A stretch of 64,000 nt of DNA from an uncultured Bifidobacterium sp. (GCA_964491875.1 CAZBIC010000004.1:132878-196877), one strand, 5' to 3'; shown: positions 15,767 to 40,438, counted from the stretch's first letter. Numbers and translations: made by a program. The notes: generated by a model not told the origin, from the sequence alone.

Positions 15767-15812
15767 CCAACCGCACTGGCGTCGTAGTCGTATGACGCCA
15801 GCGGGCGGTTGG
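15767..15812. terminator. Strong hairpin between convergent genes (bidirectional terminator candidate)
   Basis: CCAACCGCACTGGCGTC (15767-15783) pairs with GACGCCAGCGGGCGGTTGG (15794-15812). Confidence 0.5.
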
Positions 15813-15820
15813 CATTCGGA

Positions 15821-19582: not shown

Positions 19583-19918
19583 TTTGATGTCCGTGCGGCG
19601 GGCCGGTATTGTTCGTTTATCAGAGTGGCAGGCGAGGTTCACGTATGGCCACGCCTACGTCGTGTCCGACGTGCGGCACAGAGTATTTTCTCGATCCGCC
19701 GTTCGACTCGCTACCAGAACCTCCGCCGGGTGAATCACTCGCACCGGCAGAAGTCATTCAGATACGCAAACGATGACAACTAATGCGCCTTCGCAAACTC
19801 GACCAGCGGGCTCTGGTTGCAATCCACGCGTAATCCCGGACGCGCTCCAATGAATACTTCGTCAGCCTGTCCCTGCAAGTCACCGTGGTGTGCTCGCATT
19901 TCAGGAGAAGCTTGATTC

Positions 19919-20134
19919 GTGAATTGTCCAATTTGTAACAACAAGATGCCGTTTGGACTCCAAATCCACATGACGGCGGCACATGGCTCCGAGAGCGTCA
20001 AAAAGCAGCTCCGCTTCGCACAGGAAGGGAATGGAATCTCGCCAAAGAGCAGGAAAGGCGGACATGCCAAACGGAGACAGGGAAAGCCATTCGGCAAGAA
20101 GCCACCAAAGCCCCCTCGCCCCAATCGCTATTGA
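19919..20134 (+). CDS. Small basic protein with C2H2-like motif (hypothetical)
   Basis: CPICNNKMPFGLQIHMTAAH followed by a Lys/Arg/Pro-rich tail. GTG start and no other support. Confidence 0.25.
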   Translation: MNCPICNNKMPFGLQIHMTAAHGSESVKKQLRFAQEGNGISPKSRKGGHAKRRQGKPFGKKPPKPPRPNRY

Positions 20135-20260
20135 CCGGAAACAGGCTTCTCGACCATGCAAGAAGCTGGGGGGGCTTAACGGGGGGGAGAGATCGAACAG
20201 AGCCTGAAGGATGACCAAGACATGCCGAGCTAACAGCTCAGTTGTTCGTACGAACTCCGC

Positions 20261-21136: not shown

Positions 21137-22025
21137 TCTGCCTCCTTCGGTTTACTGCCTGATTTTTCCCATAGACGTCTCGGCATTGTGACCAGTGATT
21201 CAGCGCGAAGCAGGGTCATGAAATTTTCGTCACTCAACAGCCTGCTGAACGCAGTGACGATGAAGACCAGCTTTGCCTCGCAAAATTTCGCCTTCCGAAT
21301 CAGCAGCTTCTGCCGCTGGCGTTCACGTTTGTAGGTGTTCACCAGATTCTCGGCCCCGGTGCGGCTCTTGCGCGGGTTGCGTGCGACTTCGCCGCGCCGC
21401 TTGCCAAAGAAGCGCCGTCGTTCGATGAGTCGTTTCACGGTGCGGATGGACACTTGATTCAGTTGATTCGCCTCGTACGCCTTGAGCAGTTCCCGCTGTG
21501 CTTGCATGTCTTCCGTCCTGGCAATGTCCATCGCTACGCCCAGTGGAATCTGTCCGGTCACGGCTGCTTCGAGCAGACGCTCCTCGCCGGCGTTCTTCAA
21601 GGCGAGCAGGCCGCTGACCATAGTGTCGTAGATGTCACCAGCTTCCGGGCGATGTCGCCATTGCTGTGACCCCGCTCCTTGAGACGTTCGATTTCCCGCA
21701 TCAGTTCCAGCGGCGCGGTAGGGCGGCGGGCCATGTTCTCAATCAGGCTGCGCAGCAATCGTTCCTCCTTCGAAACCTCGACGACCATCGCTGGAATCTC
21801 CTTGTGGCCGAGCACGAGGAACGCCTCGATGCGGCCCTGGCCGCAAACCAAATCATAGCCCGGCCCCTCCGCCTCATCCGCCGAACGTAGGCTCACCTGA
21901 ATTGGCTTCTTCAGGCCGAGGTTTCGGATGCTCTGGACAATGGTTTCAAATTTTTTCCGGTCGCGGAGTCGAGGGTTCAGGATACGAATCCGGTCGATGG
22001 GAATCATTTGTATTTCGTCGTTCAC
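21133..22025 (-). pseudogene. ParB N-terminal-domain protein, split by a 1-nt frameshift near 21638-21640
   Basis: ORF 21597..22025 (IPIDRIRILNPR...PIQVS...YDLVCGQGRIEAF) ends ...GDIARKLVTSTT*. The other frame reads EAGDIYDTMVSGLLALKNAGEERLL and continues as ORF 21133..21621. Restoring one G (ctggtgac to ctgggtgac) fuses the two. Confidence 0.75.
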
Positions 22026-23570
22026 GCCGCCTCCTGAAGGTTGATGCGCTCCGCCATGTCAAAGAAACGGTCCAGAGTCTCGAATCGGTAGGTGTCCAGA
22101 TAAATGCTGTTTTCTTCCGCGACGCGGAGATTTTCCCACGTCATGTCGAGGGCAGGAAGCAGGTAGTAGTCGCGAACGCCCTCATTGGCCGCATCCATGC
22201 GAACCGCGATGGTGATGTCCGGCTTGAGGCCCGCATCCAACCGGATGACCCATCGCGACACCCCGGTGTTCGTCGTGGTGTGACGACACAGCACGATGGA
22301 GATTCGCAGTTCGTCGTTGAGATGGAGCAACTGGGTTTCGTCATCCCATCGTACGACCGCTCCCAACTTCTCAATCCGGCCAATGACCGCCGCCACGATT
22401 GCCGAGTGTTCATTGCGCAACCGGCGATTGATTTCGATGAACTTGTAATCAATTTCCGGGTCGTAGCCGATCAACCGATAGGCCGACACCAGGCTTCCAA
22501 ACCGGTGCCGGAAGGCTGCGCTGGATGGCAGGTTCTCCGCTTCATCAATGAGGATACCGCTGATGCGACCGTGCTGAATCAGCAGGCCACGGAGTTTTTC
22601 GATCATCTCTTCGTCGGTGAACTTTTGATTGCGGGCCAGAATAAGTTTCCGCGCCCGCTGAAATATATCGGGTTCGATAATACCTGCGAAAACGCCCTCC
22701 GCTCGAATCCACTTGTCCGGTGGATTGGTCACATGCTTGCGCTTCAGCTTGAAAGACGTGCGGTGATAGACATTGTTTCCGATGTATTTTTCATTGGTAA
22801 GCACCTGATGGATGGTGGCCCGCGTCCAAACCCGTTCAAGATCCGTGACGATTCCTTGTTCGTTTAGCACAGCCGCGATTTCCGACTCCATCTTCCCATC
22901 GTCGAGAAACGCCTTATAGATCCCCCCGCACGATCTTTACTTCTTCCTCCGGCCCCGGAACCAGCACCACTCGATCTGTCTGGAGGCACTTGTGCTCTCC
23001 CCGCTTGAGCAGGGCTTTGTGCTGTCCACTCTGATCGATCAACATCCGCCGCAGACCAAACCCGGCTGAGCCGCCCTGTTTGTAGCCGAGTTGAATCAGG
23101 CGGCACGCGCCCTTGAACACTTTCGACGAAAGCTCCCGGCTGTACTCGCCTGCCATCGCGCGCTTGACGCTCTTGACGATGGTGGATACCGGGCTGCCGT
23201 CGTTCTCGAACTGTTCCGCACAGTAATGGACTGCGACTCCGGCCTGGCGGCAGATGTACTCATGGTACGCGCTTTCGTCGGCATCCTGGAATCGTCCCCA
23301 CCGGCTCACGTCGTAAACAAGAATGCAGGAAAACTTCGCCTCACCGCTTTGCACGTCGCGAATCATCTGTGTCAGCGAGTCGCGCCCCTGGATGTTCAAG
23401 CCGCTTTTCCCCTCGTCTGAATACGTCCGCACAATCTCCAGGCCGCGACGCTTGGCGTCTTCCCGGATGACATCCATCTGGTTGCTCGTCGAGTACTGTT
23501 GATGCTCCGTGGACATCCGAACGTATGCCGCAGCCAGATTAGGTTTGAGATCCGCGCCGTCCGTGCTCAT
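22022..23570 (-). pseudogene. Large serine recombinase, split by a 1-nt insertion in a G6 tract (C6 at 22922-22927 on +)
   Basis: The N-terminal resolvase domain is AAAYVRMSTEHQ..S..NQ (catalytic Ser region) in ORF 22914..23570, ending EEVKIVRGDL*. The adjacent frame reads GIYKAFLDDGKMESEIAAVLNEQGI... (ORF 22022..22891, recombinase domain). Removing one G restores IVRGIYKAFLDDGK. Confidence 0.85.
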
Positions 23571-23576: not shown

Positions 23577-24092
23577 TCAAGTCCGGGTGATTGGTTTGCC
23601 TGCGGATGCAACCGCTTCTGCCGAAGATTTTCGGCGGAGAATCTCATGTCCCTTGGTTACCAGATGACGGCATGTCGCGGCGATGTCCTCTTGCAGCGTA
23701 CTGCCCGTCAATATGGAGACCAGCCCAAGTACCAAAGGGTCTTGAGGCAGACAGTCATCTTGTAGCGGTGAAAGCGCCGATCTTGGTTTGGAGCCTTTCG
23801 GCTGAATTGTTTCGACGAGACAGTCCTCTTGTAGCGCAATCCTCCACGGCGACGGTGATCGTTTCCAGTACTGAGGGTGGGCTTTGCGCCAGATACGCAC
23901 CCGTTCGACCTGCGCCGGCCCGCGCCAGTGATCTTTGTTCTCCGGCTTTTCTCGACACCGTCGCTGACTTGCCGCCTTGCTGGCCTTGCGGCACCTGGGT
24001 TGAGAACAAAACTCCTGGCGATCTCGGTTCCGGGCGTCGGGAACAAACACTCGCTGGCAACACGAACATCGGCGACGCGCTTTGGGTTTCAT
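23577..24092 (-). CDS. Hypothetical protein with N-terminal CxxC...C...C zinc-ribbon-like motif
   Basis: RRCSCCQRVFVPDARNRDRQEFCSQPRCRK. Internal LQEDC/LQDDC/LQEDI repeats. First gene of the recombinase cassette. Confidence 0.55.
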   Translation of the reverse strand: MKPKARRRCSCCQRVFVPDARNRDRQEFCSQPRCRKASKAASQRRCREKPENKDHWRGPAQVERVRIWRKAHPQYWKRSPSPWRIALQEDCLVETIQPKGSKPRSALSPLQDDCLPQDPLVLGLVSILTGSTLQEDIAATCRHLVTKGHEILRRKSSAEAVASAGKPITRT

Positions 24093-24602: not shown

Positions 24603-26216
24603 CTACTGCACCGCCAGCTTCCTGAGTTTCGAGTCAGGAACCGGAGTGGTGGCGGGACGGGCGCGGCCTTTGGCCCATTGGCGCAGGCCGGTGATTTGTT
24701 CAGCCATGAGTTTCGACAGTGGCATGAACGTAGTGAGAACTTGGGCAATGTCGAGGTCGGTTGGTTCGGTGTTGCGTTCAAACGCGGAGTACATCGCCTC
24801 CACGAAGGCGGTCTCGATTTCGGCTCCGGTGAAGCCATCGGTGGCCTTGGCGAGCGCGGCGATGTCATAGTCGCGCGGGTTACGGTCGTGGCGGGTGATC
24901 TGGAGTGTCCAGATGGTCTGGCGTTCTTCAGTGGTCGGGAGATCGACGAAGAACAGTTCATCGAAACGGCCCTTGCGCAACAACTCCGGTGGCAACTGGG
25001 CAACGTCGTTCGCGGTCGCAACGACAAAGACCGGCGACTGCTTTTCCTGCATCCAGTTCAGGAAGGTGCCGAACACGCGGGCACTGGTGCCACCGTCGCT
25101 TGACCCGGAGCTTTTAGCGCCACTGAACCCTTTCTCAATCTCGTCGATCCACAGGACAGCCGGGGCGATGGCTTCGGCGGTTTGCAGGACGGCCCGAAGG
25201 TTTCCCTCGGATTGACCCACCAGACTTCCGAACAGCCGCCCGGCATCCAGCCGAAGCAACGGAACGCCGAATACTCTGGCGGTGGCTTTCGCCGTGAGGG
25301 ATTTGCCAGTGCCGGGAAGCCCGAGGATGAGCAGTCCCTTGGGCAGCGGCAGTCCGTATTGCCGGGCGCGTTCGCCAAAGGCATCCTTCCTTGTCAGCAA
25401 CCAACGCTTGAGTTGATCGAGACCGCCGATGTCGTCGAGTGATTCCGTGGCTTCGATGATTTCGAGCAGACCGCTTTTCTTCACCGCCTGGGCTTTCTCG
25501 CGTGCGACGATGGCGGGTTCGATGGCGCGAGCCTGAACGAAGGACAGCGCGAACGCATTCTCGGCTTCGATGGTGGTGAGACCCGAAGCCGCCTCGATTG
25601 CCTTCTCCTGTTGCCCGGACTCCATTCTCTCAAGCCGAGCCGATTGCAGGATGCCGTGGAGGACGTGTCGCAGTGCGTCCTTGCCCGGCAACGCGAACTC
25701 TACGACAACCAGTTCCCGTTCCAGTTCCGGCGGCAGCACCAGCCGGCACCCAACAATGATGAGCGTCTTTTGCTTCGTCTTGCCCTCCAGCAGCGCGTCC
25801 TTGAGTTTGCGGAGCAACAGCGGGTTGGGGTCTTGAAGGAACAGGTGGTAGTCCTTGAGCAGAAACACCGCCCGGTCCTGGTGCTCGGTGATGGCCTGCA
25901 ACACGTCGAGCGGATCAGCGGCCTGATGGACCCGGTTGGTCTGTGTGTTCACCAGACCATCGGCCACTGACCAGTAGCAGAGTTGGTAACGTTCCTCCTC
26001 CTTGCGACTTCGGTTGAAGCATTCCATGACGGTTTTCAACTCTGCTTCGACGCGCTGTTCTTCCGGCGAAACGATATAGAGGCCGGGATAGCCGGCCTCG
26101 ATGTAGTGGGTGATTTTCGTGCCCGCTTCAGACGGCAAACTTGCGTTGTCCGAGCCTGGGCGGGGTGGGGATTTTTCTTTGGGCATGTTGGGATGGGGTT
26201 GGTTGCGCCGTGCCAT
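24603..26216 (-). CDS. AAA+ ATPase, Ycf46-like
   Basis: N-terminal [15 protein letters not shown] (Ycf46-type motif). Walker A GLPGTGKS, Walker [10 protein letters not shown]. Alternative start at 26186. Confidence 0.88.
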
Positions 26217-26427
26217 AGTCGTATGAGGCGGTGCAGTGGCGGCCGGCCGTGCCCAAGTCCACCCAGCGGGTGTGCTTGCAGGAACGGCTACCGTTGGCGG
26301 CCACGCGACGAGTCCAGCCCGCGCAGTTGCAGGACGTGGAGCCGTCGGCGTATTGCAACGTCTGGTATTCCACGTCCGGGTTGGAGTCGGAACGAAACGT
26401 CCAGACCCGCTGAATGGGCTTGTTCAT
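26128..26427 (-). CDS. SWIM zinc-finger protein
   Basis: CNCAGWTRRVAANGSRSCKH fits the CxCxnCxH SWIM signature. The 3' end overlaps the ATPase start. Confidence 0.65.
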   Translation of the reverse strand: MNKPIQRVWTFRSDSNPDVEYQTLQYADGSTSCNCAGWTRRVAANGSRSCKHTRWVDLGTAGRHCTASYDYGTAQPTPSQHAQRKIPTPPRLGQRKFAV

Positions 26428-26439
26428 GGCGTCATGGAA

Positions 26440-26667
26440 TTAGCGGTTGAAGTATTGGTGTTCCCACGCCAGGCAGGCCGTGCGGAGCGAATGCTGATAC
26501 ATCAGTTCGCCCTGCGCGTCCCTGACCTCCCATTGCTGGGTGGAGTGGTTGTGTTCGATGGCGGAGGCTCGGGTGATTTCGAGCGGGCCGAGGGCGGCAA
26601 GGTCCAATGCCTCTGTGTAGAGACAATGGACCTGACCATGAGGGTCGAAGGTGAGGACATGGTGCAT
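26440..26667 (-). CDS. Hypothetical 75-aa protein
   Basis: ATG at 26667 with GGAGG 11 nt upstream. Tightly packed in the operon. Confidence 0.5.
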   Translation of the reverse strand: MHHVLTFDPHGQVHCLYTEALDLAALGPLEITRASAIEHNHSTQQWEVRDAQGELMYQHSLRTACLAWEHQYFNR

Positions 26668-26674
26668 GAGTTGT

Positions 26675-26869
26675 TCAACCTCCAACCTGTTGCTGACGTT
26701 GAGTGATGCGACGCTGCTGGAACTCTGGCTTGCGCTGGCGGACCTGAACGGCGCCCAACGCTTCTTCGAGGAAGCGGGTGGCTTGTTCACAGTCCGGGCC
26801 TTTGAACCCGATGGCGTCGATTTGGATCTCGCCCGAGGGAGAGATGAGGATTTCGAGAGTGCGTTTCAT
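26675..26869 (-). CDS. DUF2997-like small protein
   Basis: MKRTLEILISPSGEIQIDAIGFKGPDCEQATRFLEEALG matches the remembered DUF2997 pattern. Confidence 0.7.
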   Translation of the reverse strand: MKRTLEILISPSGEIQIDAIGFKGPDCEQATRFLEEALGAVQVRQRKPEFQQRRITQRQQQVGG

Positions 26870-26871
26870 GA

Positions 26872-27249
26872 TTAAACTCCGGCGAGGATGAGTTTGATGG
26901 AACCGTTGCGTTGAGGCTGGCGCAGCACCGACAGTCCCTTGCGGCGGGCTTCCTTGCTGGCCTTGTGGATGCCGTAGAGTTGAAGCAGCCGGCCATACTC
27001 CTTGCCGACTTCCTGTTCGACATGGCCGTTCCACCAGTCGGTGGTGAGACCGAAGGTGCCGTCCGGCTGTTGGTTCACGGCGATGTCGAACGGGCCTTTC
27101 AGGCGCACAACATAATCGCCATGCCTTTGAGTGGTGCCGTAACCGCGAGCGTCAGCGTTTTGGAGGAGCGCGAGATCCAGCTCCGCACTGGCGGCCCGCA
27201 AGGATTCAATGTCTTTGATTTGCGTGTTGATGGTGGTGAAGTGTGACAT
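26872..27249 (-). CDS. DUF1257 (Ycf35-like) protein
   Basis: MSHFTTINTQIKDIESLRAA... is a typical DUF1257 N-terminus. The stop lies 2 nt before the DUF2997 start. Confidence 0.75.
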   Translation of the reverse strand: MSHFTTINTQIKDIESLRAASAELDLALLQNADARGYGTTQRHGDYVVRLKGPFDIAVNQQPDGTFGLTTDWWNGHVEQEVGKEYGRLLQLYGIHKASKEARRKGLSVLRQPQRNGSIKLILAGV

Positions 27250-27323
27250 GATGTTAGGGTTCATGGTTGAGGGTTGGAGGTGATGATCGGGCGAAGCGGC
27301 GGAGCAGGCCATCGCCCGGTGAT

Positions 27324-27512
27324 TTACCGGCTGGACTCGATCTCGATTTCATCCAGGTGAACGATGAGTTGAGCGCCGAGGCCGTATGGTTCCCGCTGCA
27401 AGACGAGGTTGATGAGGTCCACGGCTTCACGAACCTGCTGCTCGTTGTTACCGTGGGTGGTTTGGCTGGCGTCGAACCGCAGGGACAGCCGATGGACGGT
27501 GATGATTTTCAT
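27324..27512 (-). CDS. Hypothetical 62-aa protein
   Basis: 4-nt start/stop overlap with the upstream gene. Confidence 0.45.
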   Translation of the reverse strand: MKIITVHRLSLRFDASQTTHGNNEQQVREAVDLINLVLQREPYGLGAQLIVHLDEIEIESSR

Positions 27513-27832
27513 GGCGACTTGAGTGACCGGCGAGTTTTGGTTTCGCGTCGTCTGCGGGCTGGTCGCGACGCAGGTGGACGCTGAACCGGCGGCTCACCGA
27601 TGAGTTCGGTCAGCGTCATTTCCAGTGAAGGCAGAGAGGCGCGGCCCTGAACAAAGACGCGCTCATTGGTGGAACCGTTTTCCCAGCACGGGCTGGCGTC
27701 CACGTTCTTGAATTTCCCCTCGCGCAGAGCCTTCCTGATGATCCGCAGCGCGGCCTTCTCATTCCTGGCCGTCACGACGAAGTCGGCGAAGCAGGCGATG
27801 TCGTGGGCGTAGGAACAGGTGTATTTTGGCAT
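27509..27832 (-). CDS. Hypothetical 107-aa protein with basic C-terminal tail
   Basis: MPKYTCSYAHDIACFADFVVTARNEKAALRIIRKAL... with ATG at 27832. Confidence 0.5.
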   Translation of the reverse strand: MPKYTCSYAHDIACFADFVVTARNEKAALRIIRKALREGKFKNVDASPCWENGSTNERVFVQGRASLPSLEMTLTELIGEPPVQRPPASRPARRRRETKTRRSLKSP

Positions 27833-27858
27833 GGTGATTTCGGGTTGGGAGCGGGGGC

Positions 27859-28281
27859 TCAGGTCGTGTGTTGGTTCAACCACTCGCTGGTGCTCATGGC
27901 TTTGATCTCAGTGGCGGTGACGATGGCCGCGCCTCCTCCGTAGGCATCCGTGCGCGGCTTGGAACAGTCGTGCGACCACTCGAACGTCACCCGTCCCTGC
28001 GGATCAAACCGCTGGAGCAGGTGCTGGATGAAGAGGCAGACGGCATCAATGCCACCGTTGCTGGAGTGCAGCCACAGCGCCGGTTTGTCCCCAGCGGTGT
28101 CGGGCTCGATGTCGAAGCGCCAGTCCTCGATGAGGTCGGCGAGTTCCTTGGGGAAGTCGGCGGGCGGTTCATCGCCTTGCTGGATGCGGCTGGTTTGCGT
28201 GGCTAGTTCGAGCGCGTAACTCTGGGCTTCTGCACTGGGCAGGGTGAGGATGAGACTGAAGTGAGTAAAATAATCGGCCAT
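27859..28281 (-). CDS. Hypothetical 140-aa acidic protein
   Basis: Clean ORF within the operon. No motif recognised. Confidence 0.6.
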   Translation of the reverse strand: MADYFTHFSLILTLPSAEAQSYALELATQTSRIQQGDEPPADFPKELADLIEDWRFDIEPDTAGDKPALWLHSSNGGIDAVCLFIQHLLQRFDPQGRVTFEWSHDCSKPRTDAYGGGAAIVTATEIKAMSTSEWLNQHTT

Positions 28282-28352
28282 GATGGGTTCTTTCTGATGG
28301 TTAAAAAGGGAGCTACGCCGGGCCTGGCGGCCCGACGCAGCCGTGATGCGGT

Positions 28353-29369
28353 CTAGGCGGCCGCCAGGTTGAATCTGCGCCGGCCGAGTTCACCGAAGCG
28401 GTTGACCAGTTCGGTGGTGTCTTGTTGAGCCAGACGACGGGCTTCCTGCGAGAGCCGGGACAAGCCCTGTGTGAGCTGCGTTCGGGCCGTCGCGCTGTCG
28501 CGGTATTGTTCGGCGGTGCGACCGAGCAATTCCCGGCGGACTTGTTCCAGCCGCTGTTCCATCTCGGTGTCGTTGGCGAAGTTCAACTGCTTGAACTCGT
28601 CGATGAACCGGACCAGCCGGTTGAGCGTGCGCTGATGCACGCCGGTCTCACCGGTCTGGATGCTGTGCAGCATGTCGTCGCACAGTTGGGCGGTCTGTTC
28701 GCGCAACGCCGCCACGCAATCCGACACGAACGTCTCCACGTCCGCCCGGATCTTTGCACCGGCCGAAGCCGCTGCTGTCTGCCGGGCCGTGATGAGCTGC
28801 TGTTGGTCCGTCGCGTTCACAAGGTCCACCCCGAGACGTTCCGGGACGGCGATTTGAAACAACTGCTGGTCGAACCCGAAGGATCGTTCCAACCGTTGGA
28901 CCGGCGGGAACGATGCTTCGATGGTGGCGACGAGCCGTGCCGGATCGTTCACCAGCTTGCGGGCCATCGTAAGCCATTCCCTGGCGGCACTGTCCCGCAG
29001 ACCGCCATAGCGTTCGATGAACCGTTGCTTGGCCTGCCAGAACTCGGCTTCGAGTTCCCGGAGTTTCGCTGTCACTTCCGCCAGCCGGGCGTTGGGAAGG
29101 AAGTGTGCCAGCCCGTTGAGGAACGGGAAGGTGTTGGCCTCCACGAACGCATGGGCACGGCTTTCGACCAGCGTGAGGGCGGCCGTCGCCTCCTTGGGCA
29201 ACAGCCGTTTGTGCCCGAGCGAAATCAACCGCTCGGACAACGCCGAAGCGTCCAGCCCGATGTCTTCGGGCCGGAGCTTCTTTTGTCCACGCCAGTAGCG
29301 CACCGACACGCTCAGGAGCACGCCCTCGCGGGTGAGCACTTCGAGCAGATGAGGATGTGGAGTGGTCAT
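28353..29369 (-). CDS. DUF3150-like protein
   Basis: VSVRYWRGQKKLRPEDIGL...LISLGHKRLLPKEA...FPFLNGLAHFLP...ELEAEFWQAKQRFIERY matches the remembered DUF3150 pattern. ATG at 29369. Confidence 0.7.
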   Translation of the reverse strand: MTTPHPHLLEVLTREGVLLSVSVRYWRGQKKLRPEDIGLDASALSERLISLGHKRLLPKEATAALTLVESRAHAFVEANTFPFLNGLAHFLPNARLAEVTAKLRELEAEFWQAKQRFIERYGGLRDSAAREWLTMARKLVNDPARLVATIEASFPPVQRLERSFGFDQQLFQIAVPERLGVDLVNATDQQQLITARQTAAASAGAKIRADVETFVSDCVAALREQTAQLCDDMLHSIQTGETGVHQRTLNRLVRFIDEFKQLNFANDTEMEQRLEQVRRELLGRTAEQYRDSATARTQLTQGLSRLSQEARRLAQQDTTELVNRFGELGRRRFNLAAA

Positions 29370-29373
29370 GGCA

Positions 29374-29556
29374 TCAGGCGGTGGGTGGAACAGGGTTCGT
29401 CCGGGCCGGGCCGCCAAACCATTCCTTGAACTGCGGATAGCTGTGGATGGCACCCAGGATGGCCAGGGCGATGATGAGGTAGGGCAGTCCATACCAGACG
29501 GCGAAGAGGACGGCGATGATGAGTCCGGAGTAAATGAGGGCGTCGATTGTATTCAT
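29374..29556 (-). CDS. Small (60 aa) two-TM membrane protein
   Basis: Hydrophobic LIYSGLIIAVLFAVWYGLPYLIIALAILGAI. Confidence 0.5.
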   Translation of the reverse strand: MNTIDALIYSGLIIAVLFAVWYGLPYLIIALAILGAIHSYPQFKEWFGGPARTNPVPPTA

Positions 29557-29580
29557 GATGGATTCCTTTCGAGGGTTGAA

Positions 29581-29608
29581 GGGCCGAACACCCTGCGGTG
29601 TCCGGCCC
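29581..29608 (-). other. 12-bp-stem GC-rich hairpin inside the operon (RNA processing or attenuation candidate)
   Basis: GGGCCGAACACC ctgc GGTGTCCGGCCC with one mismatch. No U-tract follows. Confidence 0.35.
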
Positions 29609-29624
29609 GGTTGTTTGGTTCGAG

Positions 29625-31139
29625 TTACAACTGCACGCGCTGCAGGCTGCGGAGCGTGCGACGCACGGACTCGGTTTCCTGGGTGATGGTCCGGCTTTCC
29701 TTCTCGGCCGCCTTGAGCAGGCCGCCGGCATTGTTCACCTGTGCGGCAAGTTCGCGCAGGGTGCTCCGGATGGTTTCGAGATGCTCCACGGCGGCGCGAA
29801 GCGCGGACGGGCTGGCTTCCGTCTCACCGTTGACGGGTTGAGGTCTTGGAGCGGATGGATTGGGTGCTGGCATGGTATTCCTTTCTTGTTCCGTCGGATT
29901 TTCAGACGGCGGCACGGACGGGGGCGTGGCCGCCGTTGTCTCAGGAGGAGAAGGGGAGGCCACCGCTGGAGACCTGGGTGGTAGTGAGCTGGGTGGTTCG
30001 GTGGTGGAGGAACCTTCTCGCATGACCGCCACCACGAGGCGGCGCCCGCCCTGACGAAACACCAGCGGGATGTTGGGATCGCGCAGTTCGATTTCGTTCA
30101 AACCCCACCGCAGGGCTTTGGCGAGATAGATGCGGTTGAAACGGACGCACCTTGATTTGCCCTGCACGCTGGTCGTGGCGATTTCGACGGTGGCCCAGGC
30201 ATCACGTTCGTTGGCCCGGCCTTTGAGCCAGAGTTTTCCTTCGCGCACTTCGAGCATGACCACCTGATTGGCTTCATCGCTGACCGGGAGGCGCGGAGAG
30301 GATTCCAGCAATTGCGCCACGCTCCGTTCATTCAGGACAACGTGGGTGAACTCTTCCTTTTCTGACGGTGGCACCGTGCGCCAGTCGGGATAATTGCCTT
30401 CGATGGCCCGGGTGAGGAACGTCCATCGGGCCGAGGCAACCTGCACCCACGTGCGTTCTTTCCCGGCGGCCGGCCGCAGTCCGAGCGTCCAGCCGCCGTC
30501 CTCCGCGAACGCCGGCCAGAGCAGGAACTTCCGGCTCGGGACGATGAAGGACGCGCGAAGATCCAGCGTGAACGAGTTGGCGCAGTAGAGATGCTGGCCG
30601 TCGGTGCCGACCAGATAACTGCCGCTGCGCCGTCCGACATCCACGTAGGCGCCGTTGATGACCGGCCGGGATGATTCGCTGCCCGCGCAGTCGAGTGCTT
30701 CCCGCAGTGACCGTTTGAACGCACCGTCCACCGCCGAGGCGGACTCGATGACGGGCGGCTCCTTGGGCCAGTCGTCGCCGTAAGGCACCTCGAAGCATTT
30801 CTCGATCGAGCTGGGGCCGATGAAGTAACGCAGCTTCACGCGATCCTTCTCGTCACGCGTCAGGTGAAGCCGTTCCTGCGTCGGGCAGGTTTTGACGAGT
30901 TGTTTGAGCGCGTCCAACGGGACCACCAGAGTGGTGGCCGGCCCCGCCTGCGCCTCCGGCGTCCGGTAGGTGAGGAACGAGTCCAGGTCTGTGGTTTGCA
31001 GTGTGACCGCGCCGCTCTTGCTGCGGGCCACTCGCACGGCTTGCAGCACCGGCAGATGACTTGATTTGCTGACGACTTTGTTCAGGCCGGCGAGCGCAGT
31101 CTTTAACTCGTCCACCGGCAGTTCGATTGCTTGGTTCAT
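29625..31139 (-). CDS. DnaN-like beta sliding clamp with Pro/Ser linker and C-terminal coiled-coil extension
   Basis: The N-terminus ELKTALAGLNKVVSKSSHLPVLQAVRVARSKSGAVTLQTTDLDSF mirrors the DnaN start (PILsnvll...ltaTDle). About 370 aa of clamp-like sequence is followed by a PPSSLPPRSP...PSVPPSENP linker and a helical tail. Confidence 0.7.
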   Translation of the reverse strand: MNQAIELPVDELKTALAGLNKVVSKSSHLPVLQAVRVARSKSGAVTLQTTDLDSFLTYRTPEAQAGPATTLVVPLDALKQLVKTCPTQERLHLTRDEKDRVKLRYFIGPSSIEKCFEVPYGDDWPKEPPVIESASAVDGAFKRSLREALDCAGSESSRPVINGAYVDVGRRSGSYLVGTDGQHLYCANSFTLDLRASFIVPSRKFLLWPAFAEDGGWTLGLRPAAGKERTWVQVASARWTFLTRAIEGNYPDWRTVPPSEKEEFTHVVLNERSVAQLLESSPRLPVSDEANQVVMLEVREGKLWLKGRANERDAWATVEIATTSVQGKSRCVRFNRIYLAKALRWGLNEIELRDPNIPLVFRQGGRRLVVAVMREGSSTTEPPSSLPPRSPAVASPSPPETTAATPPSVPPSENPTEQERNTMPAPNPSAPRPQPVNGETEASPSALRAAVEHLETIRSTLRELAAQVNNAGGLLKAAEKESRTITQETESVRRTLRSLQRVQL

Positions 31140-31170
31140 TTGTTTTGTTGGGTTGTTGTGGAAACGGAAC

Positions 31171-31201
31171 GGCCAGCCACGTCGCTTGAACGTGGCTGGC
31201 C
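31171..31201 (-). other. Perfect 11-bp-stem hairpin upstream of the clamp gene
   Basis: GGCCAGCCACG tcgcttgaa CGTGGCTGGCC. Confidence 0.4.
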
Positions 31202-31231
31202 GGGGTGGAATGGCTGACCGGATGGCCAGCC

Positions 31232-31264
31232 GGGATGGTGGATGGGATGGTGGATGGGATGGGA
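31232..31264. repeat. Short tandem repeat (GGGATGGTGGAT x2 plus a partial unit)
   Basis: Read directly from the sequence. Intergenic, between the 64-aa ORF and the clamp gene. Confidence 0.6.
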
Positions 31265-31288
31265 CGAGCAGGGGCTCATCTCCGAGGG

Positions 31289-31483
31289 CTACATGATGGT
31301 CCGGCCCTTGGAGGGCATCCGCCGCGTGTGGCTGCGAATGAACTCTTTCAACTGCGCTTCGCAGGCGAAGAGGAACTGACTGGAGACGCGGGTGAAGCGG
31401 TGCGCCCTCACCTTGGAGGATTCGAGCGCGAACTGCCGGACCCGGCTGCGATTGATCAGGATGGTCTTGAGTTCGGCGCTCAC
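31289..31483 (-). CDS. Hypothetical 64-aa protein (GTG start overlapping the ligase stop as GTGA)
   Basis: VSAELKTILINRSRVRQFALESSKVRAHRFTRVSSQFLFACEAQLKEFIRSH... Possibly histone-fold-like, but that is unverified. Confidence 0.35.
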   Translation of the reverse strand: MSAELKTILINRSRVRQFALESSKVRAHRFTRVSSQFLFACEAQLKEFIRSHTRRMPSKGRTIM

Positions 31484-32568
31484 GGTTCGTTCTCCTCGTC
31501 GGCCGGTTTGTATTTGAGTTGACCGACCGTGCATTCGCGCTCGCTCACATCCGACCGGGGGCCGAGATACGTCGGCTGATAGAGACAGCCGCTCTCCGGG
31601 AACGCATACAGGTAACGAACCTCGACCACGCTCCCGATGACGGGCACCCGATGATTGGGTGGAATGGTGACGTTGCCCGCCACAGTCCACTGCCTACCGT
31701 CGCGCAGTTTGAGTTCGACGCTTCGCTGGGCGTTCTGTTTTCCAACGACCGCCGACAGTGTCGCGTAGAACTTGTGTTTTAATTGAGAGCCTCCGCTGCT
31801 GGGTCGCCCAGATGTGTAGGGCGCATCCAGCCGCTTGAACACCACGCCCTCCCGTTTCTGGAAACGCAGGTGTTCCAGCAGGCTGTTCTTCTCGGTCAAC
31901 CGATAGGTCGTGTTGACGTAGTGGATGTGCCGCTGTTGCCCGGACATCAGCAGATTGAGCAACGCGGTGAGGCGCTGGCGATACGGCATCGGCCGCTGGT
32001 CCTCACCATTGAGTTCCAGCAGATCGAAACAGTGGAGCGTTTCGCCCACGGCTTCTCCATCCAGGATGAAGTCGCCGGGGATCGCGTGCGCCGCCACAAG
32101 GATCGGCGAGGGCAGTCCGACGTGCAGTCCCTTGCGGTTGATCCCGTGAATGGCTGCTCCCTGCTTGCGCACCAGCATCCGCCGGCCATCAAACTTTTCC
32201 TGCATGGCCCAGGCGTCGTCCGTGACGAGCCGTTCGATTTCACCTTCGTCGATTGCATTGAGCAACTGCGGCACAACGTCCGTCTGCCGTTGCTCCTTGT
32301 CGCTCTGCTGATAAGAAATTCCGTCCGGACCGGGCGTGTAACCCTTGGCTTGCTTCTCTTTCACCAGCTTTTCGAAGATGCGCCGGGCATCCTGATAGTC
32401 CACCGGCACGTTGGTCTTGGTCCCGGTGTTGAAGGTCGCGCCTCGTCGCCCATAGGCGAAGTTCACGACGAATCGTTCACCCGCCGGTTCAATGCCGCAC
32501 TGATACACTTTGTCGGACGCGCCCTCCCGGTAGTAGAGCGTGATGCTGTCTGGTTCTGTCGTGGTCAT
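31480..32568 (-). CDS. WGR-domain / ATP-dependent DNA ligase fusion
   Basis: WGR-like N-terminus (LYYREGASDKVYQCGIEP..FVVNFAYGRRG...KLVKEKQAKGY). Ligase motif I EKFDGRR, FILDGEAV, EGVVFKRLDAPY and LKHKF are present. ATG at 32568 is preceded by a GGAAA RBS-like sequence. Confidence 0.85.
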   Translation of the reverse strand: MTTTEPDSITLYYREGASDKVYQCGIEPAGERFVVNFAYGRRGATFNTGTKTNVPVDYQDARRIFEKLVKEKQAKGYTPGPDGISYQQSDKEQRQTDVVPQLLNAIDEGEIERLVTDDAWAMQEKFDGRRMLVRKQGAAIHGINRKGLHVGLPSPILVAAHAIPGDFILDGEAVGETLHCFDLLELNGEDQRPMPYRQRLTALLNLLMSGQQRHIHYVNTTYRLTEKNSLLEHLRFQKREGVVFKRLDAPYTSGRPSSGGSQLKHKFYATLSAVVGKQNAQRSVELKLRDGRQWTVAGNVTIPPNHRVPVIGSVVEVRYLYAFPESGCLYQPTYLGPRSDVSERECTVGQLKYKPADEENEP

Positions 32569-32612
32569 GATTTTCCTTTCTGGTTGGTGAAGACAGGCCA
32601 GCCTGCGCGTCA

Positions 32613-32888
32613 TCAGCGCCCGGCCTGCGTTCTGGTTTTGGTGGTTGATTCCTCGTCGAGGCATTGTGTGGCGTCGTTGGGAACAAGGGCCACGCGCTCC
32701 CATTCAAAGACGCCAATCTCTCCGTAGTTGTGATGGCGGACTTTGAAGTCGATTTCGGGTGCTTCAGGATCGGGCGCGAGTTCCGTCACGGTCGCGATGC
32801 CGCCGGGATATTCTCCGATGGCCTCGGTCTCGACCCGTCGCCCGATGAGTGATGGGCCGTGAATGATAGTAAGTTGCTTCGCTGTCAT
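32613..32888 (-). CDS. Hypothetical 91-aa protein
   Basis: MTAKQLTIIHGPSLIGRRVETEAIGEYPGG... with ATG at 32888. Confidence 0.45.
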   Translation of the reverse strand: MTAKQLTIIHGPSLIGRRVETEAIGEYPGGIATVTELAPDPEAPEIDFKVRHHNYGEIGVFEWERVALVPNDATQCLDEESTTKTRTQAGR

Positions 32889-32973
32889 GGTGGAAATGAA
32901 ACGAGCCGGAGATGCACAGGGCATTCTCCGGCTCGCTTCGAGGTTGGGTTGGTTCAGTGGGACGTATCCCGTT

Positions 32974-33831
32974 CTAACGTGGACTTGATCGAGGTGGTCG
33001 TTCCGCTCCCGTCCAAGCGCGGCATTCGTTGAAGTATTCGCAGAACGAACAATTGAAACCCGGCGAGGGCACGAAGTCCTTTCGCGCCACTCCATCCAGG
33101 TACGACTCGATGCCGCGAAACAACCGGCTCCGTTGCATCTCGGTCATCGGGCCGAGCGGCGTGATGATGACCTTCGGGGTCTTGAGCTTCACCAGATGGT
33201 GCAGTTCCACGCCGCCCTCCCGTCGCCCGGTTGTTTCGCGATACAGGATCGAGTAGCAGGAGGTCTGGCCTTCGTGCAGATGTGCGGCCTTCCCGGCATC
33301 AGGCGTTTTGCCCGACGTTTTGAAGTCCACGATGCGGCCACCGGCCCGCACTAGGTCTATGACGCCAATCAGCGTCGGCAGCCCGTGCCGGGACAAGTCG
33401 GCCTCGACCCGGGCCTCGACTGCCTCGGGCCGCTCGTCGGCTTTGATGGGGGTTTCAATCCAGTAGCTCTCCAAGACGGCCCACGCGGTCTTGCGTTCGG
33501 CTTCTTCTTCACCGTCCCAGCGGATCAAGACTCCTTTCTGCAACTCCGGCCATTGCTGGTCGAACACCTTCCGAAACCGTTCGGTGCTGAACGTCTCCTT
33601 CCGCCACCGAGCCAAGTTCCACGCCTGCAGGACCGCGTGGACCACGCTGCCGACGTGTAGCGATGGGGTCGGTCGCTTTGACAATCGCAGCACGTAGCGG
33701 AAATAGAACTTCAACCGGCATTGCTGCCAGCAACCCAGCCGTGACGCCGAGATGGTACGTTGAAGTTCCACGATGGGGTCAACCGGCGGTGGCATCAGCT
33801 TCAGAGCCGGACGTTCTCCAAGGGCGTTCAT
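32974..33831 (-). CDS. PD-(D/E)xK nuclease, Cas4/RecB-like with Cys cluster
   Basis: GVIDLV...RIVDFKTS (D...DxK), QTSCY (QxxxY), N-terminal CWQQC and C-terminal CSFCEYFNEC (CxxCx5C, typical of the Cas4 Fe-S ligand pattern). Confidence 0.8.
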   Translation of the reverse strand: MNALGERPALKLMPPPVDPIVELQRTISASRLGCWQQCRLKFYFRYVLRLSKRPTPSLHVGSVVHAVLQAWNLARWRKETFSTERFRKVFDQQWPELQKGVLIRWDGEEEAERKTAWAVLESYWIETPIKADERPEAVEARVEADLSRHGLPTLIGVIDLVRAGGRIVDFKTSGKTPDAGKAAHLHEGQTSCYSILYRETTGRREGGVELHHLVKLKTPKVIITPLGPMTEMQRSRLFRGIESYLDGVARKDFVPSPGFNCSFCEYFNECRAWTGAERPPRSSPR

Positions 33832-34337
33832 CGCGCCCTCCCGGCCGGTTGATAGCGGCCGTTCGTGCGACGCTGGTCGGGACCGGGCCGTCCGTTACCA
33901 CCATGCTGGGCCAGCAGTTCGTCGATGAGGCCCGACATCTGCAATCGATTCAGTTGCCGCACGCCTTGCCCGAAACGGTCCATCGCCAGCCGCTCGACCA
34001 CGTTTTTGTCCAGCCGGTGTTCGTCCACGACTTTCAGGATGAGGTCGCGTTGTTTATCCGAACAGTGCCACGCATCCGCATCACCGTTCGGGGCCGGGTG
34101 TGCCGGGCGTGATGTTCCGTTGCCATTCGCGCCGTCCTGGCCGGGCTGCGGCAGATAACCCGTCTGCTGAATCTCCCGGTCCACACTGGATTGCAGGAGT
34201 GCGTAGAGCCGCTGGCTCTCTTGGTCCACTTGATTGAGGTCCGCCAGTTCCGTCCTGACCGTCACCGCATACTGATGTGACGAGTAGCCGGGCAGCCCCA
34301 GCTTCTTCGAGTAGTTGGCTTCAAGGATGATTGCCAT
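33828..34337 (-). CDS. Hypothetical 169-aa protein
   Basis: MAIILEANYSKKLGLPGYSSHQY... with ATG at 34337. 4-nt overlap with the nuclease start. Confidence 0.55.
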   Translation of the reverse strand: MAIILEANYSKKLGLPGYSSHQYAVTVRTELADLNQVDQESQRLYALLQSSVDREIQQTGYLPQPGQDGANGNGTSRPAHPAPNGDADAWHCSDKQRDLILKVVDEHRLDKNVVERLAMDRFGQGVRQLNRLQMSGLIDELLAQHGGNGRPGPDQRRTNGRYQPAGRAR

Positions 34338-34435
34338 CTTGGTTCCTTTTGGTTTGAGGGTTTGGGTTGAAAACAAAACGCTCCCGGTGGATTCACCGGG
34401 AGCGTTGCGGGTTGCGGAAGGATGATACGGTCGGA

Positions 34436-34678
34436 TTACGTCGCAGGGGCTTTGTCGGTCTGTTGATCATCACCCGTGCTTTGCGGCGGCCTGGTCCGAT
34501 AGGGCGCCGGAGCTTCCGCCAGCGCCGCCGCCTCCCATCCTTGCGACCCGGCCAGCGCCGACTCCAACAGCCCGTTGGCCAGCCGCGTCATCGGCACCTT
34601 CCGCCGCCGGGCCTCGTGATACAGCGCGCTGACCAAGAAACGATCCAACTGCGGGGAATACCATCTTGCTCGTGCCAT
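34436..34678 (-). CDS. Hypothetical 80-aa protein, first gene of the operon (possible small DNA-binding protein)
   Basis: MARARWYSPQLDRFLVSALYHEARRRKVPMTRLANGLLESAL. Preceded by a 355-nt intergenic region. Confidence 0.5.
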   Translation of the reverse strand: MARARWYSPQLDRFLVSALYHEARRRKVPMTRLANGLLESALAGSQGWEAAALAEAPAPYRTRPPQSTGDDQQTDKAPAT

Positions 34679-35034
34679 GCCGCCTCCTTCGTGAGTGAAT
34701 GTGAAGACTGTTCCCGGTCCATGATCAAGACGATGGAAAACCGCCCCATCCAGGCCGGAACAACAAAGGGCCGAAGCCCTCTGTCAAAACCTTATAGCAC
34801 GGAATCGGGGGCTATTGCGGGGGGCGATTTCCACACGCTCGCGGTCAGTCACGTTACGTTCTTGAGCGTTGATCCAATCGACGTGGCCATCCTTAGATTC
34901 TCTGATTTGCTAAACGCCCCATTCATTTCATTCGACGACATGGGTTTGAAACAGTTGTCCGAACGATCCGTCGAGTGTTTGCTGGAAGCGGTGATTCGCC
35001 GCTACGGATAGCGAGCACACGGTTACGGGATCGC

Positions 35035-36279
35035 TCATTGGACATTTCCTTTCGCCAAGTCGCCGATCAAAACATCGACTGTCTGTTCTTCGTGGACGGC
35101 ACCGCCAGCCGCGTGCATGGCCGGCATCAATTCACTGTCCCAACTTGCCGCGACCGGGACGCCTGCAAGTGCTAGGAAGTACTTCCGGGCCGCCAGATAA
35201 TCATCCGCGCCCATTCGCCACGGTTCGGCGTTGTGACGGGCTACAATGGTGTTTGCAATCTGGATACCGGGCCAGTCGAAATCCCCGTGATATGCAAGCC
35301 GGACGCCGGTGCCTTGCAGCCGATTAAGCAGGAGGCGGGTTGCTGTGCGCGGCTGGCCTTCGATGCACACGAGCGGCCGGCAATTTGAACCGAGCCGGTT
35401 CGCGGCGGCGGCGACCACGCTAGGGTTTTCGCAGACGAAAACGACTGGCCCAACGCTTTCGCGCGTGAATTCAGGCGGCGCTCGCAGGAGTTGGCGAATC
35501 GACAAATAGGTTGGCTCCCCAGCATCCGCATAAGCTCGGAGCACTCGGCCCGTCGGGCGGTCGTCCAGAGCGCGTAAATTCAAGACCAGGACCGGCGCGC
35601 TCAACTCGTCGCAAATGATCCCCACACTGGCCCAGGCGTCACGGCGCGATTGCGCGTCGTCGCATTTCTCGCATTTTCCCAGCGCGGCAATGGCGCGAAC
35701 GGTGAGCGAGCCAAGGGGAGTATCCGGGTCGAGGGCATGAGCGTCGCCGAAAACACTCGCCGCCAGTTCGGCAAGAGTGACATCACGGGCCGGCAAAACG
35801 GCCAGAACATCGAGCGTTTTGGACAGTAGCATTTCCGCCAACGTGATTCCGTGCCGTCGCAGCGAACCGTTGGCGCGCAGTTGCAACAGCCAATTCTCCA
35901 ATTCTGGCCGACCAGCAACCTGCTTCGAGGCGGAGGTGAAGATGTGGTTCCATTGGTTTTCGACCTCATTACGTTCGGCGCGGCGGTCCATCACTGGACC
36001 AATGAGTTCTTCAATGGCTTCTCGGAGGGTTGGGGAAATACCAGCCGTGCGGAGTTTTTCGTCCAGCCGGTCGAGCGAAACAGCAACGGTACTTCCTCGC
36101 GTGGGAGTTCTTCCAAGAAGCCGATTGATGGCGTCGCGTTCCGCTGCGGTTGCGTCGGGGAGGGCCAATGTCCCCTGGAGAGCCATGCCGCGTTCAAGCC
36201 GTGTGCGCAATCGTTGCACCAGCCTTTGCAGTTCAGGGCGGCCCAGAGCCTCCTGAAGTCGTACGCGGTCGCCGGTCAT
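35035..36279 (-). CDS. jetD: Wadjet JetD-like Toprim nuclease (TIGR02679/DUF2399-type)
   Basis: C-terminal Toprim signature VFVCENPS (Glu) and YHGDFDWPG (DxD). 4-nt overlap with jetC. Confidence 0.8.
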   Translation of the reverse strand: MTGDRVRLQEALGRPELQRLVQRLRTRLERGMALQGTLALPDATAAERDAINRLLGRTPTRGSTVAVSLDRLDEKLRTAGISPTLREAIEELIGPVMDRRAERNEVENQWNHIFTSASKQVAGRPELENWLLQLRANGSLRRHGITLAEMLLSKTLDVLAVLPARDVTLAELAASVFGDAHALDPDTPLGSLTVRAIAALGKCEKCDDAQSRRDAWASVGIICDELSAPVLVLNLRALDDRPTGRVLRAYADAGEPTYLSIRQLLRAPPEFTRESVGPVVFVCENPSVVAAAANRLGSNCRPLVCIEGQPRTATRLLLNRLQGTGVRLAYHGDFDWPGIQIANTIVARHNAEPWRMGADDYLAARKYFLALAGVPVAASWDSELMPAMHAAGGAVHEEQTVDVLIGDLAKGNVQ

Positions 36280-40436: not shown

Positions 40437-40438
40437 GT

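Follow-up and report, generated by a model that had tools for sequence, protein, structure and literature searches.

What is a run of 17 mostly unnamed genes, with a sliding clamp, a DNA ligase and a nuclease among them, good for? This question is raised by a 64,000-nucleotide stretch of DNA (GCA_964491875.1, CAZBIC010000004.1:132878-196877; hereafter the window, meaning the whole stretch analysed), which carries such a block at positions 24603-34678. An original prediction, made from the DNA alone, had taken the block for a single translationally coupled operon and had offered two explanations: genes that maintain and repair a cryptic episome, or a so far uncharacterised system of defence or counter-defence in which DNA ends are sensed, processed and sealed. 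The answer that we favour, and to which we give about an even chance, rests on analogy: the block would be a mobile-element module that processes and repairs DNA breaks and supports establishment, a non-homologous analogue of the hde locus and of lambda Red, and neither a replicon nor a known defence system. Support for this reading comes from a recurrent gene order, intact catalytic motifs, unrelated chromosomal contexts and the occurrence of parts of the block on plasmids, an integrative and conjugative element (ICE) and phages.

The predicted gene content of the block proved correct. All 17 genes lie on the minus strand, show a coding-type G+C content at third codon positions (0.70-0.77) and were returned as the same gene models by an independent gene caller on three further assemblies that cover this locus; gene starts were adjusted by homology. 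We number the genes g01 to g17 in the direction of transcription. When all 17 proteins were searched by tblastn against the fetched related loci (designated L with a number), the gene order was the same across loci, and 11 genes emerged as the core. Profile matches confirmed the earlier calls of a Cas4-like nuclease, a WGR-ligase, a DnaN-like clamp, DUF3150, DUF1257 and DUF2997 among them, as well as that of an AAA ATPase, which is of the Cdc48 type. The core genes are the following.

33828-34337, minus strand: g02, 169 amino acids; ATGA overlap with g03.
32974-33831, minus strand: g03, 285 amino acids, Cas4/RecB-type PD-(D/E)XK nuclease (PDDEXK_1, 6.8e-30).
31480-32568, minus strand: g05, 362 amino acids, N-terminal WGR domain and ATP-dependent ligase nucleotidyltransferase core (WGR and DNA_ligase_A_M, PF01068, 3.7e-13).
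31289-31483, minus strand: g06, 64 amino acids, small and basic, with PSKG[KR]TI conserved at the C-terminus; overlaps the ligase gene by GTGA.
29625-31139, minus strand: g07, 504 amino acids, three-domain DnaN-like sliding clamp (TIGR00663, 3.3e-21; phrog_947, 4.6e-30).
28353-29369, minus strand: g09, 338 amino acids, DUF3150, the most conserved protein of the block (Pfam, 1.1e-24).
26872-27264, minus strand: g13, about 125-130 amino acids, DUF1257 (Pfam, 9e-9; phrog_20456, 6e-6).
26675-26869, minus strand: g14, 64 amino acids, DUF2997 with one conserved cysteine (Pfam, 3.9e-15 with this open reading frame (ORF)).
26440-26667, minus strand: g15, 75 amino acids, small protein with the true start MHHVLTF.
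26128-26427, minus strand: g16, 99 amino acids, SWIM-type CxC-x16-CxH zinc signature; overlaps the start of the AAA gene.
24603-26186, minus strand: g17, 527 amino acids, a domain of about 240 residues followed by one classical (Cdc48/FtsH-type) AAA module and its lid (PF00004 and AAA_lid_3).

Where does this gene set occur, and does it move? It was found widely outside this genome, with DUF3150 at about 70% identity, and all genome matches belong to Verrucomicrobiota (Chthoniobacter (91%), Limisphaerales, Pedosphaera and Verrucomicrobiales); apart from the isolate Ruficoccus amylovorans, the carriers are metagenome-assembled genomes (MAGs). A description of the block or of its unnamed core families was not found in the literature. 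The flanks of the block differ in each genome and no flank family is conserved with it; genes for heme, polysaccharide, type II secretion system and surface proteins directly adjoin g02 in four loci. R. amylovorans carries two copies at different chromosomal sites, which are 91% identical at the DNA level from about 155 nucleotides upstream of g02 and unrelated before that point. Both of its contigs end within the block, as is expected of a repeated sequence. Two further MAGs hold at least two copies each, and the order is permuted or tandem in L017 (positions 1-5449: DUF3150-g10-g11-g02-nuclease-ligase) and L066 (positions 1-10563: AAA, then ligase-clamp), which suggests tandem insertions or circular forms. 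Given the varied flanks, the two copies in Ruficoccus, the multi-copy MAGs and the tandem or permuted arrays, the block indicates a mobile, sometimes multi-copy unit with its left end just upstream of g02. Varied insertion sites and multiple copies are what an integrative element would show.

These observations bear on the plainest alternative, that of an ordinary, vertically inherited and non-mobile chromosomal repair operon of Verrucomicrobiota for an alternative kind of end joining. Housekeeping neighbours in several genomes, a base composition equal to that of the surroundings and the fact that WGR-ligases have been noted as an uncharacterised group of bacterial ligases (PMC7470946) would all suit such an operon. 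Yet the insertion context changes from genome to genome, an isolate holds two diverged copies whose homology begins abruptly, integrases and insertion sequence (IS) elements lie nearby, cargo is inserted within the block in L006 and L007, and relatives of its parts reside on plasmids, ICEs and phages. We therefore consider this alternative very unlikely.

Recombinases were seen in about 5 of 18 loci (this window, L006, L010 and two more), in varied families and positions, and an IS element lies near the block in one locus. When element boundaries were sought, tRNA genes did not turn up, nor did convincing repeats, direct or inverted, over 14-47.5 kb of the window; ahead of g02, loci from different genomes share no conserved DNA. 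An empty-site search by exact-protein look-ups of flanking housekeeping genes returned no match.

If the block is a unit, is it also a single operon? Start-stop overlaps of the ATGA/GTGA type were verified at 33828/33831, 31480/31483 and 27509/27512, but the original claim of one translationally coupled operon did not hold, since the three largest gaps of the block are each filled by a GC-rich hairpin of 13-14 bp with a T-rich tail, at positions that are conserved in relatives:

34377-34406, minus strand: terminator-like hairpin in the g01-g02 gap, with a perfect 13-bp stem followed by TTTTGTTTT.
31170-31202, minus strand: terminator-like hairpin in the g06-g07 gap, with a 14-bp stem followed by a C/A-rich leader.
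28311-28342, minus strand: terminator-like hairpin right after the DUF3150 gene (g09), with a 14-bp stem.

The block consists of four co-directional units (g01, g02-g06, g07-g09 and g10-g17), and the hairpins probably act as terminators or attenuators that divide them. The hairpin between g06 and g07 keeps its position in 11 loci and the one behind the DUF3150 gene in about 14 related loci, each time with differing sequences, while the hairpin ahead of g02 also occurs in both copies of Ruficoccus, the one other genome examined for it. A consensus scan found no promoters of the sigma-70 type, though the consensus may not suit this phylum, and no Rfam family was matched in 14-47.5 kb. Between hairpin and clamp gene (31140-31170), we noticed a C/A-rich leader without Shine-Dalgarno sequence (CAACAACCCAACAAAACAA), which recurs at the same position in L008, L003, L007 and L011, with up to five repeats in L008, and which may be a translation enhancer typical of the phylum.

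The remaining six genes are variable members of the block.

34436-34678, minus strand: g01, 80 amino acids, small and basic; its gene is preceded by a strong Shine-Dalgarno sequence (GAAGGAGG).
32613-32888, minus strand: g04, 91 amino acids, small protein (phrog_22479, 6e-18).
29374-29556, minus strand: g08, ORF of 60 amino acids; relatives hold an ORF of 57-64 amino acids in this slot, not conserved in sequence.
27859-28281, minus strand: g10, 140 amino acids, accessory; homologues of 53-67% identity in L013 and L015-L017, no family match.
27509-27832, minus strand: g11, 107 amino acids, accessory; homologues in L015-L017.
27324-27512, minus strand: g12, 62 amino acids, accessory; homologues in L013, L015 and L016, ATGA overlap with g11.

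Homologues of g01 precede g02 in L006 and L014; no Pfam, PHROG or PADLOC model matched the protein, which by eye is possibly a regulator of the ribbon-helix-helix kind. The slot of g04 is taken by a RadC/JAB gene in L005, L021 and the P0014 contig; RadC/JAB genes were found in the relatives L003, L005, L007, L021 and L024, and none in the present block. Nine products (g01, g02, g04, g06, g08, g10, g11, g12 and g15) are without a Pfam family, in agreement with the expectation of at least nine lacking a recognisable motif.

Which of the core proteins would act on DNA ends? The nuclease g03 retains the D, DxK and QxxxY motifs as well as a C...CxxCx5C signature of four cysteines, one N-terminal and three C-terminal, and thus has the catalytic residues and the cysteines of a Cas4/RecB-type iron-sulphur nuclease. 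It also matches the Cas4 models of PADLOC (4.4e-9); a role as CRISPR Cas4 was rejected, as neither a CRISPR array nor cas genes lie nearby. In g05, the ligase motifs I, III, IV and V (EKFDGRR, LDGEAV, EGVVFKR and LKHKF) are conserved in 13 sequences, as in ATP-dependent ligases, and the LigD-related model TIGR02779 is matched at 8.7e-20, under its cut-off. WGR-ligases figure in the literature as an uncharacterised group of bacterial ligases (PMC7470946). The small basic protein g06 found neither a family nor a PDB sequence match; judged by eye, it may resemble a histone fold. As a separate observation, the PADLOC model PDLC02920, 'HEAT-ARM_XIII' (retron type XIII accessory), spans nearly the whole of g05 (model positions 2-359 of 370, E 5e-14); either this retron accessory is ligase-like or the model is mislabelled.

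The gene ahead of the nuclease encodes a less familiar protein. The family of g02 counts 2463 members in 957 clusters at 50% identity, all of them stand-alone proteins of about 100-260 amino acids. An AlphaFold2 model (mean predicted local distance difference test score, pLDDT, 65) shows an N-domain of a beta-hairpin and a long helix, a disordered G/N-rich linker and a C-terminal three-helix bundle. The bundle superposes best on the C-terminal domain of lambda Red-beta (6m9k_F; template modelling score 0.76, root-mean-square deviation 1.7 A over 59 residues, E>1), whereas a relation of the N-domain (about 60 residues) to the annealing domains of Rad52, RecT or ERF was undetectable. With a match that is not significant, we take the likeness of the model to Red-beta as a lead and not as a finding; g02 is possibly an annealing or adaptor protein that serves as partner of the adjacent nuclease. 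Like the SynExo pairs (lambda Red beta/Exo and RecET), g02 and g03 are translationally coupled with the small partner upstream, predicted phage contigs carry the two genes on their own, and it is the Exo- and SSB-binding domain of Red-beta on which the bundle of g02 superposes; unlike them, the gene order is partner then nuclease, and the fold match is insignificant (E>1).

The second group of proteins would hold such enzymes on DNA. Compared with the beta clamps of the PDB, g07 scores 1e-10 and aligns over residues 19-344; TIGR00663 is covered at positions 8-330 of 367, and all three Pfam clamp domains are matched below their gathering scores. By sequence, g07 is a divergent homologue of the beta clamp and not the housekeeping DnaN. 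It carries a conserved C-terminal extension of about 130 residues, made up of a Pro/Ser-rich linker and a helical tail, and its full-length homologues are 27-87% identical. Downstream, the true start of the DUF3150 protein g09 is M41 of the long ORF. More than 1298 homologues exist, of which the best 120 are 64-93% identical, and its AlphaFold2 model (pLDDT 72) consists mostly of long helices with a small sheet. Neither fold nor sequence or profile searches of the PDB gave a significant match for DUF3150, and the literature on it yielded one unrelated preprint. As to phages, eight proteins of uncultured phages in BFVD resemble DUF3150 in fold at E<=6e-6 and an alignment-based scan of IMG/VR found one contig with DUF3150, while tblastn against GenBank phages and exact-word patterns in IMG/VR returned none.

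The third group surrounds the AAA ATPase. Its Walker A, Walker B, sensor 1 and arginine fingers are conserved, it matches the D2 domain of Cdc48/p97 in the PDB at 3e-57, and it aligns over the full length with AAA proteins of cyanobacterial plasmids at 36-42% identity, the one result that bears on the original label of Ycf46-like. The list of its full-length relatives extends to many plasmids, to an extracellular contractile injection system (eCIS) locus on a Treponema plasmid and to gp96 of phage Corndog; because of the relatives in the eCIS locus and in Corndog, an ATPase of this type is not diagnostic on its own. DUF1257 (g13) is 55-79% identical in relatives and 28% on a Nitrospirota plasmid, and no PDB sequence matched it significantly. 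In the literature, DUF1257 and DUF2997 were found only in cyanobacterial contexts. Homologues of g15 are present in 16 loci, with a weak match on plasmid L001. The SWIM call for g16 stood in part: the CxC-x16-CxH signature is kept in five homologues (six sequences), but Pfam gave no match even at E<=0.5, and no PDB sequence matched significantly.

A further line of evidence concerns the places in which parts of the block live by themselves. The block would be built from three separately mobile sub-modules, and parts alone were found on plasmids, on an SXT/R391 ICE and in predicted phages; the whole block was not met with in any annotated phage, ICE or plasmid. The plasmid CP114559 of Candidatus Manganitrophus (Nitrospirota) carries AAA, DUF1257, DUF2997 and DUF3150 genes together with a g15-like and a RadC/JAB gene beside ParB and PRTRC. 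Five homologous genes thus stand together there (AAA 36%, DUF1257 28%, DUF2997 48%, DUF3150 23% and g15-like 30% identity), but in another order, without clamp, ligase, g02 and nuclease, and on a plasmid of 199 kb that encodes a toprim protein and a helicase close by. This cluster is likewise uncharacterised. As none of the PRTRC proteins occurs in the window, a reading of the block as a PRTRC system was rejected. An IMG/VR contig (L112) holds the compact run DUF3150-DUF1257-DUF2997-g15-AAA, the pair of g02 and PDDEXK nuclease occurs alone in the predicted viral contigs L114 and L115 and lies beside helicases in L114-L116, and g05-like WGR-ligases are found on Mycobacterium plasmids (52% identity) and, in one case, after ArdC and ParB on an Acidisarcina plasmid.

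The neighbourhood of DUF3150 is another, fixed one in Proteobacteria and Desulfuromonadia: (ssb)-recT/bet-exo-AAA_5/CbbQ_C-small protein-DUF3150-VWA-radC. The recT/bet-exo-DUF3150-radC neighbourhood is present in the SXT/R391 ICE R997, pQBR55 and pALVIN02, whereas pGSUB1 holds only the AAA-WGR-DUF3150-VWA core. The ATPase of pQBR55 is of the AAA_5 plus CbbQ_C type, and the small protein ahead of DUF3150 has a WGR domain in pGSUB1 and a WGR-like N-terminus in pALVIN02. For parts of such loci, the hde operon, a function has been documented. On IncC plasmids and R391, vcrx089 (AAA_5 plus CbbQ_C) and its small partner vcrx090 promote evasion of type I restriction (Roy et al. 2020, PMC7498323), and ssb-bet-exo repair CRISPR-Cas double-strand breaks during entry (PMC7498323). 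The documented role of the related locus is to evade restriction and to repair nuclease-made breaks, and not replication.

How far does the likeness go? We compared the block with the hde / SXT-R391 ssb-bet-exo locus as described in these sources (PMC7498323; Garriss et al. 2009, PMC2786100). Both are sets of element-borne DNA-transaction genes without a transfer or replication role, both pair an exonuclease with a small partner and an AAA+ ATPase with small accessory proteins, and both include DUF3150 (1.1e-24 in the block); RadC and WGR accompany it in the SXT-type and related plasmid versions, RadC being found only in relatives of the block. The differences are equally clear. The block's nuclease is of the Cas4/RecB type (PDDEXK_1), its ATPase is of the Cdc48 type and comes with DUF1257 and DUF2997 in place of the MoxR type (AAA_5/CbbQ_C) with VWA of hde, an ATP-dependent ligase and a sliding clamp are added, and the host element is apparently non-conjugative and belongs to another phylum. 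By analogy, the block would repeat the theme of hde with mostly different proteins: a nuclease with a coupled partner, a WGR-ligase, DUF3150, an AAA ATPase, RadC in relatives and, in addition, a clamp. It resembles hde in theme but, by the features compared, belongs neither to hde nor to known defence systems, non-homologous end joining (NHEJ) or replicons.

Bacterial NHEJ by Ku and LigD shares with the block an ATP-dependent ligase of the LigD-related nucleotidyltransferase type for the sealing of breaks. However, Ku, polymerase and phosphoesterase domains are absent, a WGR domain stands in their place, and a clamp and a Cas4-like nuclease are present; an NHEJ reading was rejected as there is no Ku.

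A dedicated clamp invites the thought of replication. The block could serve to replicate a cryptic episome that excises, or an integrated plasmid; in this case the clamp would recruit the host's polymerase III, g02, DUF3150 or the AAA ATPase would act as initiator or helicase loader, and ligase and nuclease would process intermediates. Such a module would account for a DnaN-like clamp that matches phage processivity factors, for g02 relatives that neighbour helicases, DnaB-like ones among them, where phages encode their replication genes, and for RepB/ParB-like genes 3 kb away in the window; circular molecules could underlie the permuted orders of L017 and L066. The Cluster O mycobacteriophage Corndog even combines a related AAA ATPase (gp96), ParB (gp90), Ku (gp87) and a clamp (gp84) in one genome arm, gp96 being a full-length homologue of g17 with 32-34% identity over 93%. 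Corndog is a virion-forming phage, though, and DUF3150, DUF1257, DUF2997, the ligase and the Cas4-like gene were undetected in it by tblastn; it uses Ku together with the host's LigD. Against a replicon, Pfam and PHROG scans matched none of the families for Rep, helicase, polymerase or primase among the products of the block, nor any for capsid, terminase, type IV secretion system or relaxase, as the original prediction had noted for phage, conjugation and replication-initiator hallmarks. Iterons, origin-like repeats or an AT-rich origin-like region were not found in the intergenic gaps, the RepB genes and the recombinase of this window do not accompany the block elsewhere, plasmid homologues of the clamp were absent at E<=1e-8, and the block is chromosomally integrated in all long contigs. 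We hold this explanation to be distinctly unlikely. Of the first explanation offered originally, the part that survives is DNA-end processing and repair on a mobile element; the episome itself does not, as no replicon functions were found.

Is the block a weapon rather than a repair kit? It could be a new multi-gene anti-phage or anti-plasmid defence system carried as island cargo, with the WGR domain and the clamp sensing ends, nuclease and AAA ATPase as effectors, and the ligase protecting self DNA. A known system does lie directly beside the block in the window, as predicted:

35035-43281, minus strand: JetA-B-C-D (Wadjet) operon in the flank, outside the conserved block (DUF2397, DUF2398, SbcC_Walker_B, DUF3323+DUF2399).

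Known systems also directly adjoin the block in L003 (a pair of long prokaryotic Argonaute (Piwi) and SIR2, 16788-19783), in L005 (Wadjet, of which JetA and JetB were seen on the opposite strand, and, at 15507-21002, bacteriophage exclusion (BREX; BrxL and PglZ) and GmrSD) and on the P0014 contig (MmeI-type restriction-modification, AbiEii and a NucS-like gene). The integrase context varies as it does for defence cargo, and the ligase matches PADLOC models of retron type XIII accessories. Nevertheless, known systems adjoin the block in only about 4 of about 18 loci, most flanks being ordinary chromosomal genes. Because the 79 flank ORFs pooled from 11 further loci are mostly of chromosomal families, with three tyrosine integrases and one AIPR protein, the latter in favour of defence, the association with defence islands is modest, and a firm link was not supported. 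Moreover, no system model of PADLOC-DB 2.0 fits with more than one specific component; the matches are limited to a generic IetA AAA core, Cas4 and WGR_XIII / HEAT-ARM_XIII. The Iet system was rejected, as only the AAA core (IetA) matches and there is no IetS protease. Two or more copies per genome and tandem arrays would be unusual for defence systems, a clamp plus ligase is without precedent among them, and the homologous sub-modules are found on the side of the attackers, namely plasmids, ICEs and phages. Altogether, a defence system appears rather unlikely to us; what the second original explanation shares with our own is the core of end processing and repair. As an aside, L003 and L005 hold different defence cargo at the same relative position to the block.

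Why should a mobile element carry these genes? Under the reading that we favour, a break-processing, repair and establishment module, DNA ends or nicks that arise after excision, entry or cleavage by host nucleases would be recognised by the WGR domain of the ligase and resected by the Cas4-like iron-sulphur nuclease g03. The partner g02 would aid annealing or recruitment, and the ATP-dependent ligase g05 would seal the break. Throughout, the DnaN-like clamp with its helical tail, together with DUF3150, might tether the enzymes on DNA, while the Cdc48-type ATPase with DUF1257, DUF2997, g15 and the SWIM protein could remodel or remove protein-DNA complexes. The order of these events and the roles given to g02, the clamp, DUF3150 and the AAA set are what we infer from the gene set.

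Several points weigh against this reading. (i) The analogy to hde is drawn from gene neighbourhoods in distant phyla, and homology to the hde/SXT locus is limited to DUF3150, WGR and RadC. (ii) Pfam and PHROG scans of the 17 products found no SSB, no RecT/Red-beta/ERF and no YqaJ/lambda-exo protein, and g02 has no significant match in Pfam/PHROG, PDB sequence or PDB fold searches. (iii) Across loci, the block lacks a constant integrase, att site or terminal repeat, and it could hence be cargo rather than the core of an element. (iv) Genes for conjugation or packaging are lacking within 10 kb in every locus.

A bolder version is that the 11 core genes are one self-contained and undescribed machine, in which clamp, DUF3150 and Cdc48-type unfoldase would organise the WGR-ligase and the Cas4-like nuclease on DNA ends, be it as a new immune or counter-immune system or as the engine of a new class of mobile element, neither conjugative nor viral, that would cut, resect and ligate in order to move and do so without a conventional integrase. 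To this idea we lend little credence. What the favoured reading and the three alternatives (replicon, defence system and vertically inherited operon) leave of the probability belongs to mixed or unforeseen roles.

The surroundings of the block in the window deserve a brief description. Towards its AAA end lies a recombinase gene.

22022-23570, minus strand: large serine recombinase in the flank (Resolvase and Recombinase domains in two frames).

Its frameshift falls on a G6 run near 22915 and it has no homologue in any related locus; the gene may be a pseudogene, or the run may be a slippery site or contain a sequencing error. Beside it are two adjacent RepB/ParB-like genes (291 and 162 amino acids; 20261-21621, minus strand) and, near these, a Cys-rich basic ORF of 171 amino acids (23577-24092), which may together be the remnant of another plasmid-like element. 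Further out, a toxin-immunity-like pair of a 4497-residue Rhs/VWA/Ig-repeat protein and an ankyrin-repeat protein occupies 1243-15758 on the plus strand, and in L020 and L021, too, giant Rhs or Big_7 proteins are encoded close to the block. Between the Rhs locus and the RepB genes, the variable region contains an ORF of 839 amino acids (16407-18926, plus strand) without Pfam or PADLOC match. On the other side, the interval between jetD and g01 holds a featureless ORF of 96 amino acids from the gene caller (34721-35011, plus strand), which may be spurious. Two independent assemblies of the same locus (L103 and L104) both break about 416 bp upstream of jetA (window position about 43700), which hints at a strain-variable junction, possibly an island boundary, near 43.5-43.7 kb.

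Clamp, WGR-ligase, Cas4-like nuclease and Cdc48-type ATPase form an unusual combination, although the most likely role is the one expected for a mobile element. The block offers candidates for biochemistry and for tools, namely a ligase and a nuclease associated with a clamp, and a protein that may be a minimal annealing factor or adaptor. If our reading is true, DUF3150, DUF1257, DUF2997, the g02 family and the WGR-ligases would be tied to the biology of DNA ends on mobile elements. An element with its own kit for break repair can survive cleavage by restriction, CRISPR or Wadjet systems and thereby gain a wider host range, which has so far been shown only for the IncC/SXT elements of Proteobacteria. 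The block would then be a second, largely non-homologous solution to the same problem, in a poorly studied phylum.

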